In this document: one piece after another, positions 4,333-57,819 of the stretch
Position numbering within the stretch: the first letter of the stretch is position 1
How the letters are laid out: every line of letters starts with the position of its first letter
Source: Naegleria gruberi
Lineage: Eukaryota
Direction: 5' to 3' (one strand)
DNA length: 64,000 nucleotides
NCBI GenBank assembly: GCA_000004985.1
Contig: GG738876.1
Program-made: the position numbers and the translations under genes
The notes under the pieces: generated by a model
What the model saw: the letters and a program-made list of their open reading frames with translations, nothing else
Database searches by the model: none
What the model was told of the DNA's origin: nothing

Positions 4333-5310
4333 ATGAAAACAAGTTTAATTATTGCAGCAATTGCAATTCTACTCTTCATTGCAGTTGTACAAGCAACTGA
4401 CAGCTATGCTCCAAAGCCTGACAGTTATGCTCCAAAGCCAGACAGTTACAAGCCACCTGTTAAGAGAGTGTGCAAGAAGAAATGTGTTGCTCACAAGTAT
4501 GTCAATGGAAAGTGTTTGAAACATAAGATTGTTGGTCAAAAGAAGGTCTGTGATAAGTATGCTATTGTTGGTGCTGGAAAATGCTTGAAATACAAAAAGT
4601 TCTCCAAGTGTGACAAGTACAGTAAGCCAATTAAGAAGTGTGTTAAGCATGCATACAAGAAGACTACTTGTGCTAAGAAGAAGTACTGGAAGGTTTGCGA
4701 TTCTTATGGAAGTAAGAAGGTCTGTGCTAAGAAGGCAAGCAAGAAGTATTGTGCCAAGTATGAAAATGTCACCAAGTGTGTCAAACATGCTACCAAGAAG
4801 GTCTGTAAGAAATTCAAGAAGGTTCCAATTAAGAAGTGTGAAAAGAAGAAGGTCTGTGACAAGTACACCACTGATTCATATGCTCCAGCCAAGTGCAAAT
4901 ATGTTAAGAAGTGTAAGGTTGTCTCCTATGCTAAGAAGTGTTGTCAATATAAGAAGATTAAGTATTGTAAGCAAAAGAAGACTTTCAAGAAGTGTTGTCA
5001 ATATAAGACTAAGCATTATTGTGCCAAGCATAAGACTATCAAATTCTGTAAGCACAAGAAGACTTTGAGCAAGTGTATCAAGTACAATAAGAAGAAGTAC
5101 TGTTGTCAATATAAGACCATTCCTTCCAAGTGTATCCATAAGAAGCATTGGAAGAAGTGTGTTAAAAAGTCAAAGGGAAAGAGAATTTGTAAGAAGCACA
5201 AGTTGACTGGTGGAAAGAAGGTCTGTAAGAAGTATGCTCAAAAGAAGGTCTGTGCTAAGAGAAAGAAGGTCTGTAAGAAGGTTGACTCTTATTTTGGTAA
5301 GAAGTGGTAA
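4333..5310 (+). CDS. Secreted, extremely Lys/Cys-rich repetitive protein
   Basis: N-terminal signal peptide (MKTSLIIAAIAILLFIAVVQA). DSYAPKP occurs twice at the N-terminus. After that come dozens of KK(V)C.K(Y/H) units. My hand count is about 106 Lys and about 33 Cys in 325 aa. AAG codon bias is strong. The three overlapping alternative-frame ORFs are shadows. Confidence 0.8.
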   Translation: MKTSLIIAAIAILLFIAVVQATDSYAPKPDSYAPKPDSYKPPVKRVCKKKCVAHKYVNGKCLKHKIVGQKKVCDKYAIVGAGKCLKYKKFSKCDKYSKPIKKCVKHAYKKTTCAKKKYWKVCDSYGSKKVCAKKASKKYCAKYENVTKCVKHATKKVCKKFKKVPIKKCEKKKVCDKYTTDSYAPAKCKYVKKCKVVSYAKKCCQYKKIKYCKQKKTFKKCCQYKTKHYCAKHKTIKFCKHKKTLSKCIKYNKKKYCCQYKTIPSKCIHKKHWKKCVKKSKGKRICKKHKLTGGKKVCKKYAQKKVCAKRKKVCKKVDSYFGKKW

Positions 5311-5417
5311 GGTGAAGGAGATGAAACAATTTTGAAAATTTTGTAATTTTGAAATGAAATAGTGAGAATAAATGTGTTCACCTTAATATATATTCGAAAT
5401 GATCATATCATGCTTCT

Positions 5418-5913
5418 CTAATCAATAATTGATTGTAAACTTTGTAAATGAGCCTCAATTCGAGAAGATTTCTTTTTCATATCTTCAATTTCCTTATTAA
5501 ATTGTTCAGTGAGAGGTTCCACTAGCATCATTTGTGATTTTTCAAATCGGAGTCGTATTGTTTTTTTCTCATTCTCTAGTGAACTAATTACTTTTTGAAT
5601 GGTGGCATGATTTTTTTTGGATTTGATGATTTCCTCTTGTTTTAATTCGAATAGTTCGAGAAGGTTCATTTTGGCGACTGTGTAATTCTCTGCTCGAATG
5701 ATCGTGAATGATTTTAAGTGGTACTTTCACAATAATTACAATTAATTTCGAATAACCTTCCAGCAGATTCCTCCAAAATATTTCGGAATTAATTAATTGA
5801 TCGTGAGTTGATTTGTCGATAGAGAGAATACTTCCAAGATGTTTCACGGAGAGGAATGTAAATATTTCTATTAGAATTTCTGTTGGTAAAGAGATTGACA
5901 TTTTTTTAAACAT
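5418..5913 (-). CDS. F-box protein with a C-terminal coiled coil, two exons
   Basis: ORF 5584..5913 starts with an F-box (LPTEILIEIFTFLSVKHLGSILSIDKSTHDQL), and its likely ATG follows aaaaaaa. The coiled-coil ORF 5418..5669 is in another frame. The frames join with a 67-nt GT-AG intron at 5690..5756 (weak donor gttatt) or a 79-nt variant. The junction is tentative. Confidence 0.55.
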
Positions 5914-13854: not shown

Positions 13855-15183
13855 ATGAATCATCTTAAACGATTGATTGTTTTGGCTCTTGTAGTTGTAC
13901 TCATGTTTGTCGTCTCACTTTCACATGCTCAAGACGAACAACAGGAAAACAACAATAAGAGACCACCAAGACCTTTACCTTCAGGTAGACCACCAAGACC
14001 ACATCCAGATCATTCTGGAGGGCGACCACCTCGCCCATTCCCATCTGGAGGAAGACCACCACGTCCAGATCATTCAGGAAGAAGACCAAGACCAGATCAT
14101 TCTGGTGAGAGACCACATCCACCAGGTCCACAACCAGATCATTCAGGAAGAAGACCACCAAGACCTGGTCCACATCCTGGTCAATCAGGATTACCACCAC
14201 GTTCTGATGAACAAGATGGTCAAAGTGAAAATAGACCTCGTCCACCAAGACCTCATCCAGAACGTTCAGGTGAAAGACCACATCCAAGACCTTTCCCATC
14301 TGGAGGTAGACCACCAAGACCAGACCACTCAGGAAGAAGACCAGGTCCACATCCAGATCATTCTGGAAGACCACCTCGTCCACATCCAAGACCAGAACCA
14401 TCTTCTGAAGATGACGAACACTCTGATAGACTTGAACAAGGAAACAGACCTCGTCCACCAAGACCAGATCGTTCAGGTTTGCCACCTCGTCCATTCCCAT
14501 CTGGAGGAAGACCACCAAGACCAGATCATTCAGGAAGAAGACCACATCCAAGACCTGAACACTCTGGTGAGAGACCACATCCAAGACCAGCTCACTCTGG
14601 TGAAAGACCACCAAGACCAGATCATTCAGGAAGAAGACCAAGACCAGGTCCACAACCAGACCAATCGGGAAGACCACCTCGTCCTTATCCAGAACATTCT
14701 GGTGAAAGACCAGGCCCACGTCCTCAACCACAAGAATCAACTTCATCCTTAATAGGTGAAAGACCACCAAGACCTGATAGATCTGGAAGACCACCTCGTC
14801 CATTCCCATCTGGAGGCAGACCACCAAGACCAGGCCCATCTGGAGGAAGACCAGGTCCTGGACCAGGTCCACAACCTGATGTTTCATCTGTTGAAGATCC
14901 ACTCATTGATGCTCAAAATAATACCAAGAATGAAATTCCAAATGGACCATCCAATGGTTCTGATGCTTTGGCCATTGTCTTTGGTGTTATTGGTGCAATT
15001 GTTGTCATGGCTGCTATTGCTCTTGTCATTGGAAGTGGAATTGCTGTTTTTGTTTTGAAGAAGAAGGGTTATTCACTCTCATTGAAGAAACATCAAATGT
15101 TGAGAGATGAAGACGAATTTGAATATCCACAACAAGACCAAACTCCAATTTACTCTGTCAATCAACCAGTTGCTCAAAATTAG
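13855..15183 (+). CDS. Type I membrane protein with a Pro/Arg/His/Gly-rich decapeptide-repeat ectodomain
   Basis: Signal peptide (LIVLALVVVLMFVVSLSHA). There are about 30 degenerate units of the types FPSGGRPPRP, DHSGRRPRP and HSGERPHPRP. After these come one TM helix (ALAIVFGVIGAIVVMAAIALVIGSGIAVFVL) and a 50-aa tail beginning KKKGYSL. Confidence 0.8.
   Translation: MNHLKRLIVLALVVVLMFVVSLSHAQDEQQENNNKRPPRPLPSGRPPRPHPDHSGGRPPRPFPSGGRPPRPDHSGRRPRPDHSGERPHPPGPQPDHSGRRPPRPGPHPGQSGLPPRSDEQDGQSENRPRPPRPHPERSGERPHPRPFPSGGRPPRPDHSGRRPGPHPDHSGRPPRPHPRPEPSSEDDEHSDRLEQGNRPRPPRPDRSGLPPRPFPSGGRPPRPDHSGRRPHPRPEHSGERPHPRPAHSGERPPRPDHSGRRPRPGPQPDQSGRPPRPYPEHSGERPGPRPQPQESTSSLIGERPPRPDRSGRPPRPFPSGGRPPRPGPSGGRPGPGPGPQPDVSSVEDPLIDAQNNTKNEIPNGPSNGSDALAIVFGVIGAIVVMAAIALVIGSGIAVFVLKKKGYSLSLKKHQMLRDEDEFEYPQQDQTPIYSVNQPVAQN
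13960..14890 (+). repeat. In-frame degenerate ~30-nt coding repeat array (P/R/H/G-rich)
   Basis: Near-identical nucleotide blocks such as agaccaccaagaccagatcattcaggaagaagacca recur throughout. The lack of stop codons produces long spurious ORFs in another frame and on the opposite strand. Confidence 0.8.
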
Positions 15184-29047: not shown

Positions 29048-32017
29048 ATGTCTTCGTACGGAACGCACGGCGATGGTGGAGATGGGTTGGAATCGAGTAA
29101 ACAACTCAATGTGCTCCAAAAGATTGCTAGAAATAGAGTGGTGAATATTGTTGGTGCGATAATATTATCAATTATTTTATTATTGAGTATTGGATGTTGT
29201 GTTGTTGTTGGTGTGCTTCATTCACATTTGCTTTTCCAATGTGGATTTGCTGAATTTATATTTATGTTACTTCTTGAAGGCGCTACATTCTTCTTCTGTA
29301 TTTATCACTTGTACAATATTTACAAGTTTTTCAAGACTAGAGCACGACACTCTGGTAAGAAGGGAATTTCCGCTATTGTTGCTGCTTTATGTTCATCAGA
29401 AGTAAATCAATACAATGCATATTCTGATTCCAGACAAGGAAATGAAGAAGATGATTTTGATGATGAAGAAGATGATGAAGATGACGAAGAAGAGGAGGAA
29501 GAAGAAAGCAAATTTTCCAAGTTTGTTGTCGGCTTTTTGAAGATTGCTGCCAATGCTATTGCTGTTTTATGTTTCATCATTTTGGTACTTTTCACAGTTG
29601 TTGTCGTTCCATTGCAACAACAAACCTACCCAACTTATAACGGTACTCTTAAACTTCCAAAGTTTACACCAAAGGGATCTTCTGCTCCTACAATTTCACG
29701 TGAAAGTAATGGTGTTGTTCACATCAAGGCTTCACACGATTATGATTTATATTTCGCACAAGGTGTAGCTGTTGCTCAAGATCGTTTGTGGCAATTGGAA
29801 TTTAATCGTAGATTGTCAAATGGTATTTTGGCTGAAGTTGCTGGTGCTGATGCTGTCAATGTTGACAGTTGGTTCAGAACTCTCGGATTTGCTCGTTCTG
29901 CTGCCAACATTTTACCAACCATTGATGCTGAAACTCTTTCATTCATTCAAGCATATTGTGATGGTATTAACTCTTATATTAATAGTAATCCACCACTTCA
30001 ACCTGAATTTGTTCTCCTCAACACTAAACCAGTTGAATGGACTCCAAGTGATGTTATTGCTTATATGAAGTTTGTTTCATTCTCTCTTTCTGATAATATG
30101 GAAAAGGAAGTTTGGAGATTCAAGATGATGCAAAGAAATATCACAAAGGACAGAGTTAACGAATTGGTTCCTTTCTACCCAACTGATATGCCAACTATTT
30201 TGAGTTTGGAAGAAATGAATTTGCAAAACGTTCCAGTTGAAGAAAGAGAAAAGATTGAAAAGGCTCAACAAGATGATTCTGCTGCTTTTATTCCAAAGGC
30301 TATTCACAATTTGACCATGTCTGTCATGGAAGAAATGTTCGCTTCATTGGAAGAATCTGGTGAATGGGGTAAACAAGCTGTCAGATCAGTTTTGAAGGGT
30401 ATGGTTGCTCCAGATATCACTGGTAACAAGGCCTCAAACAATTGGGTTCTCGGAACCAAGATTACAGCAAACAATGGATCATTGTTGGCTAACGATCCTC
30501 ATTTGGATTTGACTGCTCCAGGTATTTGGTATTTGGCTCATTTGGAAGGTCCAACTCACAATGTTATTGGTTCTACTTTTGTTGGTCTTCCAGGTATTGT
30601 TATTGGTAAGAATGATTTCATTTCATGGGGTGTTACTACTGGTCTTGTTGATGCTCAAGATTTGTACGTCATGTCCGAAGTTGAAGAAGGTAAAACTTAC
30701 AACTACAATGGTAAAGTTCTCCAATATGAAACTCGTACCGAAACTATTAATGTTAAGGGAGCTGCTGCCAAGACTATTACTGTTAAGGAATCTGTCTACG
30801 GTCCAGTTATTAATGACCACTACCAAGTTGATGGTAACGTTTTGTGTTTGAAGTCTTTGACTACCTACACTAATGATACCACACTCCAAGCTTTCCTCAA
30901 GTTGAACAGAGAAGCTAAGGATTGGAACTCATTTGTTGATGTTGTCTCCTTGTTCGTTTCCCCATCCCAAAACTTTGTCTTTGCTGACAAGAGTGGTAAC
31001 ATTGGTTACTATTTGGCTGGTTTGGTTCCAATTAGAAAGGAAGGTCACAATGGTAGATTCCCAGTTATTGGTGATGGTAGCTATGATTGGCAAGGATTTA
31101 TTCCAGCTGCTGAAAAGCCAAGCGTTTACAATCCAAAGAAGGATTACATTGCTTCTGCAAACAACAGAGTTACTCCTGTTGGTTACAAGTACAGTATTAC
31201 CCAAGATTGGTACTCTTTCTATAGAGCTAGCAGAATTGTCTCATTGATTGAAACTGCTATTGAAAAGGGAACTCCACTCAATTTTGAATACATGAAGAAG
31301 ATGCAACACGACGTTCACTCACCAGTCTTTGATCAATTCAAGTTTGTTTTTGAAGCTATTCCAAAGTTCAGAAATCTCACTGAAAATAAGGAAAAGTTGA
31401 GAGAAAAGTTGATTAATTGGGACGGTGATGAAATTTTGTACTCTCAATCTGCTTCCATCTTTGAAATGTGGTACAAGATTATGGGTAACCTCACCAAGGT
31501 TGAAACTGTCAATAGATGGTCTTTCGGTCCATATCTTTACAATGCCTTGAAGAATGGTGATAGTGCTTGTGAAAATTATCACAACACTACTTGTATGTTG
31601 TTCGCTATTGACAGCTTTGAAAATGCCATTGATGCTCTTGAAGCCACTTACGGTTCTATTCCATTGTGGGGTTCTGATATTCACGAATCTGAATTCCCTA
31701 ACCCGGTAATGGATAATACTGTTCTCAAATGTTTGGCTGGAGCTACTCGTACTACTGTTGGTGGTTCTTCAACCATTAATGTTGGTGAAACTCAATATCC
31801 TGCCCTCAATTCAAGATGGGGTGTTTCTTATAGACAAGTTGTTGATTGGCGAGGCAATCAAGCTTCATTCATCATTCCACTCGGTCAATCTGGTAACTTC
31901 TTATCTCCTCTTTACACCAACTTGTTAGAAATGTGGTCTGACCCAACTGGTCAATACTTGGACATGAAATCTGCTGGTTACACTGCAACCAATACCCTTT
32001 CTCTTTCCTCTCAATAA
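29048..32017 (+). CDS. Penicillin/acyl-homoserine-lactone acylase family Ntn-hydrolase (peptidase S45), anchored by three N-terminal TM helices
   Basis: The ATG at 29048 follows agaaaaa. Family motifs are YFAQGVAVAQDRLWQLEFNRR and the beta-chain start S-NNWVLG...LLANDPHLDLTAPGIWYLAHL. The nucleophile Ser codon is at 30434..30436. Three N-terminal TM helices flank an acidic run (EEDDFDDEEDDEDDEEEEEEE). Codon use is typical of the host. Confidence 0.85.
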   Translation: MSSYGTHGDGGDGLESSKQLNVLQKIARNRVVNIVGAIILSIILLLSIGCCVVVGVLHSHLLFQCGFAEFIFMLLLEGATFFFCIYHLYNIYKFFKTRARHSGKKGISAIVAALCSSEVNQYNAYSDSRQGNEEDDFDDEEDDEDDEEEEEEESKFSKFVVGFLKIAANAIAVLCFIILVLFTVVVVPLQQQTYPTYNGTLKLPKFTPKGSSAPTISRESNGVVHIKASHDYDLYFAQGVAVAQDRLWQLEFNRRLSNGILAEVAGADAVNVDSWFRTLGFARSAANILPTIDAETLSFIQAYCDGINSYINSNPPLQPEFVLLNTKPVEWTPSDVIAYMKFVSFSLSDNMEKEVWRFKMMQRNITKDRVNELVPFYPTDMPTILSLEEMNLQNVPVEEREKIEKAQQDDSAAFIPKAIHNLTMSVMEEMFASLEESGEWGKQAVRSVLKGMVAPDITGNKASNNWVLGTKITANNGSLLANDPHLDLTAPGIWYLAHLEGPTHNVIGSTFVGLPGIVIGKNDFISWGVTTGLVDAQDLYVMSEVEEGKTYNYNGKVLQYETRTETINVKGAAAKTITVKESVYGPVINDHYQVDGNVLCLKSLTTYTNDTTLQAFLKLNREAKDWNSFVDVVSLFVSPSQNFVFADKSGNIGYYLAGLVPIRKEGHNGRFPVIGDGSYDWQGFIPAAEKPSVYNPKKDYIASANNRVTPVGYKYSITQDWYSFYRASRIVSLIETAIEKGTPLNFEYMKKMQHDVHSPVFDQFKFVFEAIPKFRNLTENKEKLREKLINWDGDEILYSQSASIFEMWYKIMGNLTKVETVNRWSFGPYLYNALKNGDSACENYHNTTCMLFAIDSFENAIDALEATYGSIPLWGSDIHESEFPNPVMDNTVLKCLAGATRTTVGGSSTINVGETQYPALNSRWGVSYRQVVDWRGNQASFIIPLGQSGNFLSPLYTNLLEMWSDPTGQYLDMKSAGYTATNTLSLSSQ

Positions 32018-51077: not shown

Positions 51078-51150
51078 CGCCCCACGTGGGGCTCGAACCC
51101 ACGACCGTTGGATTAAAAGTCCAACGCTCTACCGACTGAGCTAGCGGGGC
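51078..51150 (-). tRNA. tRNA-Lys(UUU): tRNA-Lys (anticodon UUU)
   Basis: The minus strand reads GCCCCGC TA GCTC AGTCGGTA GAGC G TTGGA CTTTTAA TCCAA CGGTC GTGGG TTCGAGC CCCAC GTGGGGC G. This is a 73-nt cloverleaf in which all four stems pair. No intron and no encoded CCA. Confidence 0.95.
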
Positions 51151-57746: not shown

Positions 57747-57819
57747 TGGAGATGCGGGGTATCGATCCCCGTACCTCTTCCATGCTAAAGAAGCGCTCTA
57801 CCATGTGAGCTACATCCCC
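57747..57819 (-). tRNA. tRNA-Ala(AGC): tRNA-Ala (anticodon AGC)
   Basis: The minus strand reads GGGGATG TA GCTC ACATGGTA GAGC G CTTCT TTAGCAT GGAAG AGGTA CGGGG ATCGATA CCCCG CATCTCC A, 73 nt. The G3:U70 alanine identity pair is present. No encoded CCA. Confidence 0.95.

Follow-up and report, generated by a model that had tools for sequence, protein, structure and literature searches.

What is a protein for when one-third of its residues are lysine and one-tenth are cysteine? The question is raised by a single open reading frame (ORF) of Naegleria gruberi (assembly GCA_000004985.1, contig GG738876.1), located in the 64,000-nucleotide stretch analyzed here (the window). An earlier reading of the letters and their ORFs (the sequence-only reading) had described a secreted protein made almost entirely of Lys and Cys spacing units. 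Here, we report a mirror symmetry in the placement of its cysteines, and we propose, with a probability of roughly 0.4 for the statement as a whole, that the protein is a Naegleria-type, lineage-restricted rod with a structural-matrix function.

The ORF ran uninterrupted from a start codon and signal peptide to a stop codon, encoding 325 aa, and its ends were consistent with homologue alignments that start in the signal peptide and reach the C-terminal tail (Table 1). Counts gave 106 Lys (32.6%), 33 Cys (10.2%), 25 Tyr, 3 Trp, and 6 Phe, confirming the earlier hand estimates of one residue in three, one in ten, and roughly 33 Cys. For the mature protein (303 aa, about 35.5 kDa), the net charge was about +97; Leu, Ile, Phe, and Trp together made up about 7% of its chain. 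Lys was encoded by AAG in 95 of 106 cases, a fraction (0.90) not reached by any other of the 34 window ORFs with 200 or more aa (most others, 0.3 to 0.65). The biased codon set described earlier thus held for Lys; the remaining codons were without clear bias (TAC for just 32% of Tyr). DNA repeats detected with Tandem Repeats Finder were limited to a 21-nt heptad repeat (2.4 copies) and one 54/81-nt duplication, and the Lys/Cys pattern is not a DNA-repeat artefact. The duplication gave rise to the three CCQYK units; the second Cys of each CC doublet was not conserved among homologues.

TABLE 1 Coordinates of the gene and of its known and predicted parts (positions in the window; aa numbering from the initiator Met)
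Feature	Position	Strand	Protein segment	Basis
Complete single-exon CDS, Lys/Cys-rich protein (predicted secreted)	4333..5310	+	325 codons + TAA	ORF list, translation
Likely signal peptide	4333..4398	+	aa 1-22 (MKTSLIIAAIAILLFIAVVQAT)	Sole hydrophobic segment; equivalent N-terminus in homologues
N-terminal tail, three D-S-Y-x-P heptads	4399..4458	+	aa 23-42	21-nt tandem repeat (2.4 copies), translation
Arm 1 of Cys ladder (predicted)	4471..4857	+	aa 47-175, 15 Cys	Mirror pairing with arm 2; predicted beta strand
Tip loop (predicted), one DSY-x-P	4858..4893	+	aa 176-187 (DKYTTDSYAPAK)	Mirror centre; non-strand in model
Arm 2 of Cys ladder (predicted)	4894..5274	+	aa 188-314, 18 Cys	15 mirror partners + 3 extra
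Internal 54/81-nt duplication	4933..5117	+		Tandem Repeats Finder periods 27, 54, 81
C-terminal tail, one DSY	5275..5307	+	aa 315-325 (KKVDSYFGKKW)	Translation; pLDDT below 50

The N-terminus (MKTSLIIAAIAILLFIAVVQA, followed by TD) was the sole hydrophobic segment (Kyte-Doolittle, 15-residue window; maximum of 3.49 at aa 5 and no more than 0.53 beyond aa 25), and an equivalent signal-type N-terminus was found in those full-length homologues whose N-terminus is kept. Cleavage is likely after VQA, between aa 21 and 22. Secretion, as the sequence-only reading had it, fits a conserved cleavable-type signal peptide, the lack of a second hydrophobic segment, and a dense, conserved Cys pattern of the kind expected for an ER-folded protein. 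The run DSYAPKP-DSYAPKP-DSYKPP that had been described behind the signal peptide was seen in the translation (heptads at aa 23 to 42). This tail is probably flexible, because its AlphaFold pLDDT is below 50. The same heptad tandem was present at the N- or C-terminus of homologues P0008, P0021, P0023, and P0028; tandems in homologues reached up to four (V/I)D(S/T)YKP units, and homologue C-terminal tails carried D-[ST]-Y-K-P repeats. Concatenated D-[ST]-Y-x-P heptads had no match at E <= 1 among 5.8 billion clusters.

Residue patterns around these motifs were partly as first described. All nine Asp lay within D-[S/K]-Y and only two Glu occurred elsewhere, so acidic residues are indeed nearly confined to such motifs; beyond the N-terminal heptads, DSY recurred at three sites (aa 123, 181, and 318) rather than four. 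Lys was found at position -1 or -2 of 28 of the 33 Cys (19.5 +/- 2.8 in shuffles), bearing out the Lys said to precede nearly every Cys, whereas the sequence said to follow it, C-[AVC]-K-[KHY], was matched by only 7 of 33 (C-x-K, 20; C-x-x-[K/H/Y/F/W], 29). One quoted string, KYCAKHK, does not occur; the actual strings are HYCAKHK and KYCAKYE. The Cys spacing, for which a check of periodicity had been suggested, had a 9-residue period (16 pairs at lag 9, where 3.3 would be expected; z = 7.8), and harmonics appeared at 18, 27, and 36. Of 32 gaps between successive Cys, 25 measured 9 to 13 residues, and the others were three CC doublets, two 8-residue gaps tied to doublets, and gaps of 4, 6, 6, and 7. 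The protein is not simply low complexity but a member of a small family.

In 5.8 billion clusters, searches found first 6 and then 11 homologues, and 1.84 billion representative proteins yielded 23 matches; profile searches retrieved the same set. Significant matches included P0002 (E = 4e-64, 45% identity, 88% coverage) and P0004 (E = 2.6e-36). Named members were restricted to proteins of N. gruberi (NAEGRDRAFT_67458 and NAEGRDRAFT_64980) and N. lovaniensis (C9374_009239), annotated as "predicted protein" or "hypothetical protein" and without a Pfam entry. The family is multi-paralogue (27 to 73% identity among members) and was found in at least two Naegleria species and several environmental assemblies. 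P0022, P0026, and P0027 (E = 2e-13, 1e-7, and 9e-4) were discounted as unrelated Cys-periodic repeat proteins. N. gruberi P0003, in which a C-terminal half of the Lys/Cys family is fused to SAM and PB1 domains, is probably a mis-joined gene model; it was set aside as evidence of synteny, its SAM region being just 29% identical to the SAM-domain ORF upstream in the window. The neighbours of P0012, on a 6.4-kb ENA contig, were uninformative. Look-ups by exact sequence gave no recorded entry for the window protein, a methyltransferase encoded next to it, P0002, or P0003.

No Pfam family matched the window protein at E <= 0.1, six homologues likewise gave only noise, and neither the protein nor the family profile had a match among PDB sequences at E <= 10. 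The family that the sequence-only reading did not recognise is thus without a Pfam, PDB-sequence, or fold relative, and it fell into no known cyst-wall or metallothionein class, the outcome which that reading had set against its own proposal. In the literature, we found no paper on the family (by accessions, motifs, or Lys-/Cys-rich secreted proteins), no expression, localisation, or biochemical data for any member, and no Naegleria cyst-wall proteome.

Members shared an architecture of signal peptide, one or more D-x-Y/Pro tails, and a Cys ladder (Cys-gap vectors of nine members), with conserved gap series 4,10,12,11,9,10,9... and ...10,12,9,7. In the eight long sequences compared, 24 of the 33 Cys columns were invariant, among them 13 of the 15 in arm 1 (Cys 47 and 169 vary); the three extra Cys of arm 2, in CC doublets at aa 204, 222, and 258, were specific to this copy. 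Across seven long homologues, conservation was 85% for Cys, 77% for Gly, 54% for Pro, 37% for Lys, and 5 to 37% for other residues (His, 16%), and Lys content across members ranged from 13 to 33%. Judged by these alignments, the defining trait of the family is its conserved mirror-symmetric Cys ladder, not its Lys richness, and selection appears to act on structure rather than composition.

The mirror symmetry itself is a new finding, absent from the earlier reading. In the window protein, 15 Cys pairs with position sums (i + j) of 358 to 363 are mirrored around the central loop, between arms of near-equal length (129 and 127 aa). Mirror pairing was found in all full-length homologues (in P0004, ten consecutive pairs all sum to 398). 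The mirror score exceeded all 60 gap-order shuffles in nine of ten members (z = 3.4 to 5.9), and mirror alignment of the two halves outscored direct alignment in nine of nine, tests that are not independent since the homologues are related. Half lengths were correlated (r = 0.99), as were inter-rung segment lengths, arm against arm (r = 0.97; n = 103). Segments of 9 residues faced each other in 49 of 50 cases, and long inserts were matched across the arms (17|18, 34|33, and 32|30). Tandem duplication is unable to produce such symmetry; antiparallel pairing is able to. As a statement of topology alone, it is probable that the two halves pair antiparallel through their mirror-placed Cys.

AlphaFold with 18 sequences gave an all-beta model (mean pLDDT, 78.9; 90 residues at 90 or above), although with a pTM of only 0.25, superseding an earlier run with 6 sequences (pLDDT, 54). 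Arm 1 had pLDDT values mostly of 74 to 93, and strand breaks were mirrored in the model (68-69|293-294, 80-83|280-282, and 97-99|264-266). A structure search with the model gave no fold match; the sole structural neighbours, all weak, were long beta-hairpin stems of pore toxins. In an antiparallel ribbon, cross-strand disulfides are rare at hydrogen-bonded positions. An odd rung spacing of 9 residues would place alternate Cys pairs at exactly such positions if the ribbon were regular, and the actual geometry must therefore contain bulges or differ in detail. Many Lys also neighbour Lys across the strands, an arrangement that electrostatics would disfavour unless a polyanion partner were present.

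In the structure that we propose, the signal peptide would be removed and the chain would double back at the tip loop, bringing residues 47 to 175 antiparallel to residues 188 to 314 as a single, very long two-stranded beta-ribbon. Cys in mirror register, 15 per arm, would form about 15 cross-strand disulfide rungs, one per 9 residues. The product would be a stiff, Lys-coated rod whose length, if straight, would reach about 40 nm, with kinks at three mirrored Gly/Pro sites. The N- and C-terminal tails would adjoin where the predicted hairpin opens, placing D-S-Y-x-P motifs at both rod ends (one at the tip; three N-terminal plus one C-terminal at the opposite, open end). Such a rod may play a structural part outside the cell, most likely in the cyst wall or in some other surface matrix, where its Lys coat would bind polyanionic polymers and where end-to-end cross-linking could proceed via the Tyr motifs and unpaired Cys. 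This functional role is suggested by the rod-plus-reactive-ends design and the terminal tandem Tyr/Lys/Pro heptads, and two further points were counted in its favour: this copy has an odd Cys count (33), and its strong AAG preference is compatible with high expression. Against it, no carbohydrate-binding module was detected with Pfam in the window protein or six homologues.

The sequence-only reading had put forward three candidate roles, namely a polyanion-binding wall or matrix component, an adhesive, and an antimicrobial or nucleic-acid binder. Other explanations were weighed against the structural one. A bacterivorous amoeba might instead release the protein into phagosomes or the medium as an antimicrobial or prey-binding effector, a giant cationic, disulfide-braced beta-hairpin that would bind, agglutinate, or permeabilise anionic bacterial surfaces. 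The signal peptide, the charge of about +97, and the predicted disulfide-stapled antiparallel hairpin all suit that role, as do the small apolar positions around each Cys (V/I/Y at -1, aromatic at +3) and a multi-paralogue, fast-evolving family (27 to 73% identity) typical of effector genes. Yet the mature chain, at 303 aa, far exceeds the 17 to 21 aa of known peptides of this kind, its low content of Leu, Ile, Phe, and Trp (about 7%) makes membrane insertion doubtful, the conserved rod geometry and terminal Tyr/Pro heptads are foreign to such peptides, and Pfam and PDB-sequence searches found no homology to any antimicrobial family. We regard the effector role as unlikely, and a cross-linkable wall or matrix component is favoured over an antimicrobial binder. 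Pairing could also be intermolecular, with two antiparallel chains, or many staggered ones, joined by interchain disulfides into covalent dimers or fibres. An antiparallel homodimer requires the identical mirror symmetry of Cys, which the pattern fits equally well, and the odd Cys counts of several members (33, 35, 37, 37, and 69) mean that each must have at least one thiol that is free or bonded between molecules. Against interchain pairing, every member has a Cys-free or Cys-poor loop of 12 to 47 residues at the centre of symmetry (its length differs between homologues), rich in Pro, Gly, and D-x-Y as expected for a hairpin tip, and the AlphaFold monomer packs its halves together with high local confidence; we consider it a good deal less probable than intramolecular pairing, and unlikely enough to rank below the effector.

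The remaining explanations fared worse. Were the thiols to stay reduced and chelate metals, the protein would be a metallothionein-like binder or redox buffer, and its high Cys and Lys contents and several C-x-x-H spacings give it a superficial similarity to that class. Metallothioneins, however, are small and cytosolic, with clustered Cys and typically no aromatic residues. The window protein has 325 aa, a signal-type N-terminus that would send it into the oxidising secretory pathway, abundant aromatic residues (25 Tyr, 3 Trp, and 6 Phe), and isolated Cys at 9-residue spacing in place of C-x-C or C-x-x-C clusters; its His positions are conserved at only 16%, it has no Pfam metallothionein match, and a metal-binding role is highly improbable. 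We give equally little credence to a polyprotein precursor cut by a kexin-type protease at dibasic sites into short Cys peptides. KK sites are many and KR or RK occurs at aa 44-45, 284-285, and 309-311, but kexin cuts poorly at K-K, homologues do not keep the KR sites, and cleavage every 9 residues would ruin a mirror register conserved over a 268-residue domain. That the ORF arose by chance or represents unexpressed low-complexity DNA, as its extreme composition and the lack of expression data in the literature might suggest, is scarcely credible given an intact reading frame (start codon, signal peptide, stop codon) and homologues of 27 to 73% identity that keep Cys, Gly, Pro, and architecture.

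If the topology of the proposed rod is right, the protein would be an extreme natural disulfide-stapled beta-ribbon, a monomeric rod about 10 times longer than any known cystine-ladder hairpin, of interest for fold space and for biomaterials as a stiff, polycationic, and probably protease-resistant nanorod. The mirror register predicts 15 explicit disulfide pairs: 47-314, 51-307, 61-298, 73-286, 84-276, 93-267, 103-257/258, 113-248, 122-239, 131-230, 140-221, 149-212, 158-203/204, 169-194, and 175-188. Only tentatively, and with the odds against it, do we suggest that this is an undescribed architecture, a single hairpin rod tens of nanometres long with arms of about 130 residues and about 15 rungs, serving as a polycationic, end-cross-linkable building block of a Naegleria wall or matrix; if so, the fold would be a new class with no relative in the PDB, and the family would supply the first molecule put forward for the proteinaceous part of the Naegleria cyst wall or coat. 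To our knowledge, hardly any of the proteins that make up the extracellular structures of Naegleria have been characterised. N. fowleri, a lethal pathogen, belongs to this genus, and a lineage-restricted, probably abundant secreted family would be a candidate as a structural component, diagnostic antigen, or target.

The proposed rod was also compared with known systems. Abundant cyst-wall proteins of Acanthamoeba include a Thr/Lys/Cys-rich domain in Jonah(1) and a basic Thr/Lys/His-rich spacer in Leo(TKH) (PMC6541295), a precedent for the structural-matrix role. Like the family described here, for which secretion is predicted, Acanthamoeba Leo and Jonah, Entamoeba Jacob and Jessie, Cryptosporidium COWP, and Giardia CWP and HCNCp are secreted, multi-paralogue, lineage-specific, and Cys-rich proteins of cyst-forming protists; they differ in having compact 6- or 8-Cys lectin domains, CBM49/CAA domains, or leucine-rich repeats (LRRs) where this family has a continuous 9-residue Cys ladder. 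In Pfam comparisons of the window protein and six homologues, none of the Jacob/Jessie chitin-binding, COWP, Giardia CWP LRR, or CBM49/CAA models matched at E <= 1. We know of no Pfam model for the Leo 8-Cys domain.

Tachyplesin, protegrin, arenicin, and theta-defensin resemble the window protein as cationic antiparallel beta-hairpins with cross-strand disulfides, made in the secretory pathway (predicted features in the present case). Such peptides are amphipathic and have 17 to 21 residues with 1 to 3 rungs placed 2 to 4 residues apart, in contrast to about 129 residues per arm, about 15 rungs 9 residues apart, and Tyr/Pro tails here. The protein far exceeds a single short hairpin of 17 to 25 residues (mature chain, 303 aa; ladder domain, 268 aa), has few large hydrophobic residues, and showed no sequence relationship to these peptides. 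Short tandem Tyr/Lys/Pro repeats are also found in secreted mussel foot protein 1 (AKPSYPPTYK), plant proline-rich proteins (PRPs; PPVYK), and extensins, which are cross-linked via Tyr derivatives. The window protein, with three N-terminal heptads and three isolated DSY motifs, has repeats similar to these in composition, but they form only short tails on a Cys-ladder core, their consensus differs, and they have an invariant Asp two residues before Tyr that the others lack.

Cnidarian minicollagens combine a rod core with reactive end modules and build a tough wall by covalent cross-links. Their rod is a collagen triple helix with Cys-rich ends, whereas the rod predicted here is Cys-rich with Tyr/Pro ends, and the likeness is a functional analogy only, without homology. 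The antifreeze protein of Tenebrio molitor, a compact 84-residue beta-solenoid with disulfides within its coils, shares with the family a short period (12 versus 9 residues) in which regular Cys staple a repetitive beta structure; its symmetry is direct and its sequence Thr-rich, whereas the family described here is mirror symmetric and Lys-rich.

When the Cys positions of the window protein, the predicted secreted product of an intact Lys/Cys-rich open reading frame (ORF), were aligned to their own reverse, they fell into 15 mirror pairs, comprising outer pairs (47-314, 51-307, 61-298, 73-286, 84-276, 93-267, 103-258, 113-248) and inner pairs (122-239, 131-230, 140-221, 149-212, 158-204, 169-194, 175-188), with i+j between 358 and 363 throughout. 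The symmetry centre was the loop C-DKYTTDSYAPAK-C. Mirror pairing was found in every full-length homologue, with i+j of 398 in P0004 (ten consecutive pairs), 378 in P0007, and 464 in P0006 (nine pairs). Mirror scores exceeded all 60 gap-order shuffles in 9 of 10 members (z = 3.4 to 5.9), the lone failing member being N-terminally truncated, and the two halves aligned better in mirror than in direct orientation in 9/9 members. Half lengths were nearly equal (r = 0.99; 129/127, 120/116, 144/147, 137/139, 156/158, and others), and 7 of 9 members had the same number of Cys in each half. Inter-Cys spacing correlated between each arm and the mirrored arm (r = 0.97, n = 103; 87% within ±1), 9-residue segments faced 9-residue segments in 49 of 50 cases, and irregular segments were paired across arms (12/12, 17/18, 34/33, 32/30). 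P0006 and P0009 carried large, matched D-x-Y/Pro-rich inserts on each arm, and Gly/Pro irregularities were opposed in the window protein (IVGQ versus GGT, GAG versus KGK, SKPI versus IPSK).

Antiparallel pairing of both halves would be the constraint that accounts for all of these mirror features. Internal duplication was rejected as their origin, since it would give direct, not mirror, symmetry. AlphaFold performed poorly with 6 sequences (pLDDT, 54); with 18, mean pLDDT was 78.9 (90 residues at ≥90) and the model was all-beta, with unbroken strand runs (100-175 and 188-263), strand breaks in mirror pairs (68-69/293-294, 80-83/280-282, 97-99/264-266), and low-confidence N- and C-terminal tails. 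Its pTM of 0.25 would fit an elongated object. Sequence symmetry and model alike favour a single giant ribbon of two antiparallel strands, with ~15 predicted disulfide rungs and a length of up to ~40 nm, if straight. An antiparallel intermolecular dimer, instead of a hairpin, would satisfy the same symmetry and predicts an identical mirror arrangement of Cys. Disulfides avoid hydrogen-bonded positions, and the odd rung spacing would place alternate rungs at such positions, a caveat on the geometry of the hairpin ribbon. What is new here is the mirror-register cystine ladder, which converts what had looked like an odd composition into a structure prediction that is specific and testable and has no solved relative; the member sequences themselves had been deposited before, as predicted proteins lacking annotation.

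Among 5.8 billion protein clusters, six matched (three N. gruberi "predicted proteins" and three environmental sequences). Searching 1.84 billion representatives with a profile returned only 23 matches, and N. lovaniensis C9374_009239 came from a further profile search. Cluster look-up supplied the member names NAEGRDRAFT_67458 and NAEGRDRAFT_64980. The three matches that were weakest or most aberrant (P0022, P0026, P0027) were set aside as unrelated Cys-periodic repeat proteins. Closest to the window protein were environmental fragments (70-73% identity) and the C-terminal half of N. gruberi P0003; exact-sequence look-ups found no record of the window protein or of its neighbour. Pfam gave no domain in any member examined, PDB chains gave zero matches to the window sequence or the family profile, and searches of the literature library found no paper mentioning member accessions and no expression or localisation data for any member, in keeping with a sequence-only reading that had not recognised the family. 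Judged by sequence comparison, the gene belongs to a real, conserved, lineage-restricted family. Among window-protein residues of the Cys domain scored in seven long homologues, Cys (85%), Gly (77%), and Pro (54%) were retained most, against 37% for Lys, 37% for Tyr, and 5-31% for the remainder; Lys content ranged from 13 to 33%, the window protein being the extreme. What defines the family is thus a Cys/Gly/Pro scaffold, and Lys richness is no defining trait. In each CC doublet, the second Cys (aa 204, 222, 258) was present in the window copy alone and came in with the internal duplication.

The public model of N. gruberi P0003 (443 aa) fuses a ladder member's C-terminal half (68% identity over 119 aa, window-protein aa 198-316) with SAM and PB1 domains. 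It lacks a signal peptide and arm 1, and the probable explanation is that the model was wrongly joined or truncated at a short scaffold. A 713-aa relative (P0012; L001 3836-5977, an ENA metagenome contig) has 13% Lys and, N-terminal to its ladder, ~360 residues of another Cys-rich repeat (CP....CP.G.. units; no Pfam match), which shows that other modules can be attached to the ladder and that Lys richness is dispensable.

Exact counts (106 Lys, 32.6%; 33 Cys, 10.2%; 25 Tyr; 9 Asp; 2 Glu) bore out the earlier hand tallies of Lys and Cys. The mature chain (35.5 kDa) has K+R of 108 and D+E of 11 (net charge, ~+97). The sole hydrophobic segment of the protein, at the N terminus (MKTSLIIAAIAILLFIAVVQA/TD), precedes DSYAPKP-DSYAPKP-DSYKPP, and the earlier proposal of a secreted protein was supported as a prediction. 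All nine Asp lie within D-[S/K]-Y, six of them in DSY and three in C-D-K-Y; beyond the N-terminal heptads there are three further DSY motifs, where four had been reported. Patterning of Cys and Lys exceeded chance: K stood at −1 or −2 of 28/33 Cys (19.5 ± 2.8 in shuffles), and Cys autocorrelation was highest at lag 9 (16 versus an expected 3.3, z = 7.8) and showed harmonics at lags 18, 27, and 36. The strict C-[AVC]-K-[KHY] context proposed from the sequence matched just 7/33 Cys, and its example KYCAKHK does not occur literally; the looser C-x-K and C-x-x-[K/H/Y/F/W] matched 20/33 and 29/33. Tandem Repeats Finder detected only the 21-nt heptad (DSY-x-P) repeat and one duplication over the gene, and a DNA microsatellite artefact was rejected on that basis. 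The strong codon bias noted earlier held for Lys (AAG, 95/106; fraction 0.90, the highest among 34 window ORFs of ≥200 aa, most others 0.3-0.65) and did not extend comparably to Tyr. Antisense ORFs were Leu-rich, as would be expected opposite AAG-rich coding sequence, the complement of AAG being CTT. The tRNA-Lys(UUU) in the window reads AAA, the Lys codon that the gene nearly avoids.

Surrounding genes form an ordinary eukaryotic set (SAM-domain protein, F-box-like protein, methyltransferases, peroxisomal-type ABC transporter, Zn2Cys6 factor). Just downstream lie two overlapping minus-strand ORFs, which may belong to a single gene as separate exons or frames, with an intron or a frameshift between them; the longer has an F-box-like motif at its start (PF12937, E = 3.7e-5). 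After its repeat units, the 442-aa ORF continues into a single transmembrane helix, with a short tail on the cytosolic side; Pfam gave no match, and the product resembles a type I surface protein of extensin- or mucin-like kind. Penicillin amidases are a typically bacterial enzyme family; the 989-aa ORF that matches them is surrounded by eukaryotic, Naegleria-like genes and has an AAG fraction of 0.83, unusually high within the window, and its horizontal acquisition is therefore possible.

Coordinates of features in the window
Feature	Position	Strand	Remarks
Lys/Cys-rich ORF	4333..5310	+	325 codons, intact (ORF list, translation)
54/81-nt duplication	4933..5117		Within Lys/Cys-rich gene
AATAAA hexamer	5367..5372	+	Read from sequence; 57 nt past stop of Lys/Cys-rich gene; possible polyadenylation signal
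Downstream ORF, shorter	5418..5669	-	Overlaps the next
Downstream ORF, longer	5584..5913	-	
442-aa ORF	13855..15183	+	Signal peptide; ~30 Pro/Arg/His-rich units (GRPPRPDHSG, ERPHPRP)
Overlapping ORF	13895..14752	+	Probable artefact of repeat region
Overlapping ORF	13901..14902	-	Probable artefact of repeat region
Penicillin amidase ORF	29048..32014	+	989 aa; PF01804, E = 8.6e-180
tRNA-Lys(UUU)	51078..51150	-	
tRNA-Ala(AGC)	57747..57819	-	

The window protein would be a stiff, Lys-coated rod with Tyr/Pro motifs at both ends, the N- and C-terminal tails lying together where the hairpin opens and one DSY-x-P at the tip; this copy adds three spare Cys. Several homologues have longer C-terminal heptad arrays (KVDTYKPP ×4 in P0028, IDSYKP ×4 in P0008). 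Rod, Tyr/Pro ends, and spare Cys suggest a structural extracellular element that could bind polyanionic polymers and be cross-linked. The main functional rival, an outsize counterpart of the cationic beta-hairpin antimicrobial peptides that would be aimed at bacterial prey, is made less likely by the low hydrophobicity of the protein and the conserved rod-plus-tails design. A metallothionein-like protein, a polyprotein precursor, and a chance ORF are all unlikely. Architecturally, the proposed rod is a remote variation on disulfide-braced beta-hairpins and may represent a new fold class. The Acanthamoeba cyst wall contains abundant proteins with Thr/Lys/Cys-rich domains and basic Thr/Lys/His-rich spacers (PMC6541295), a precedent in composition, not homology.
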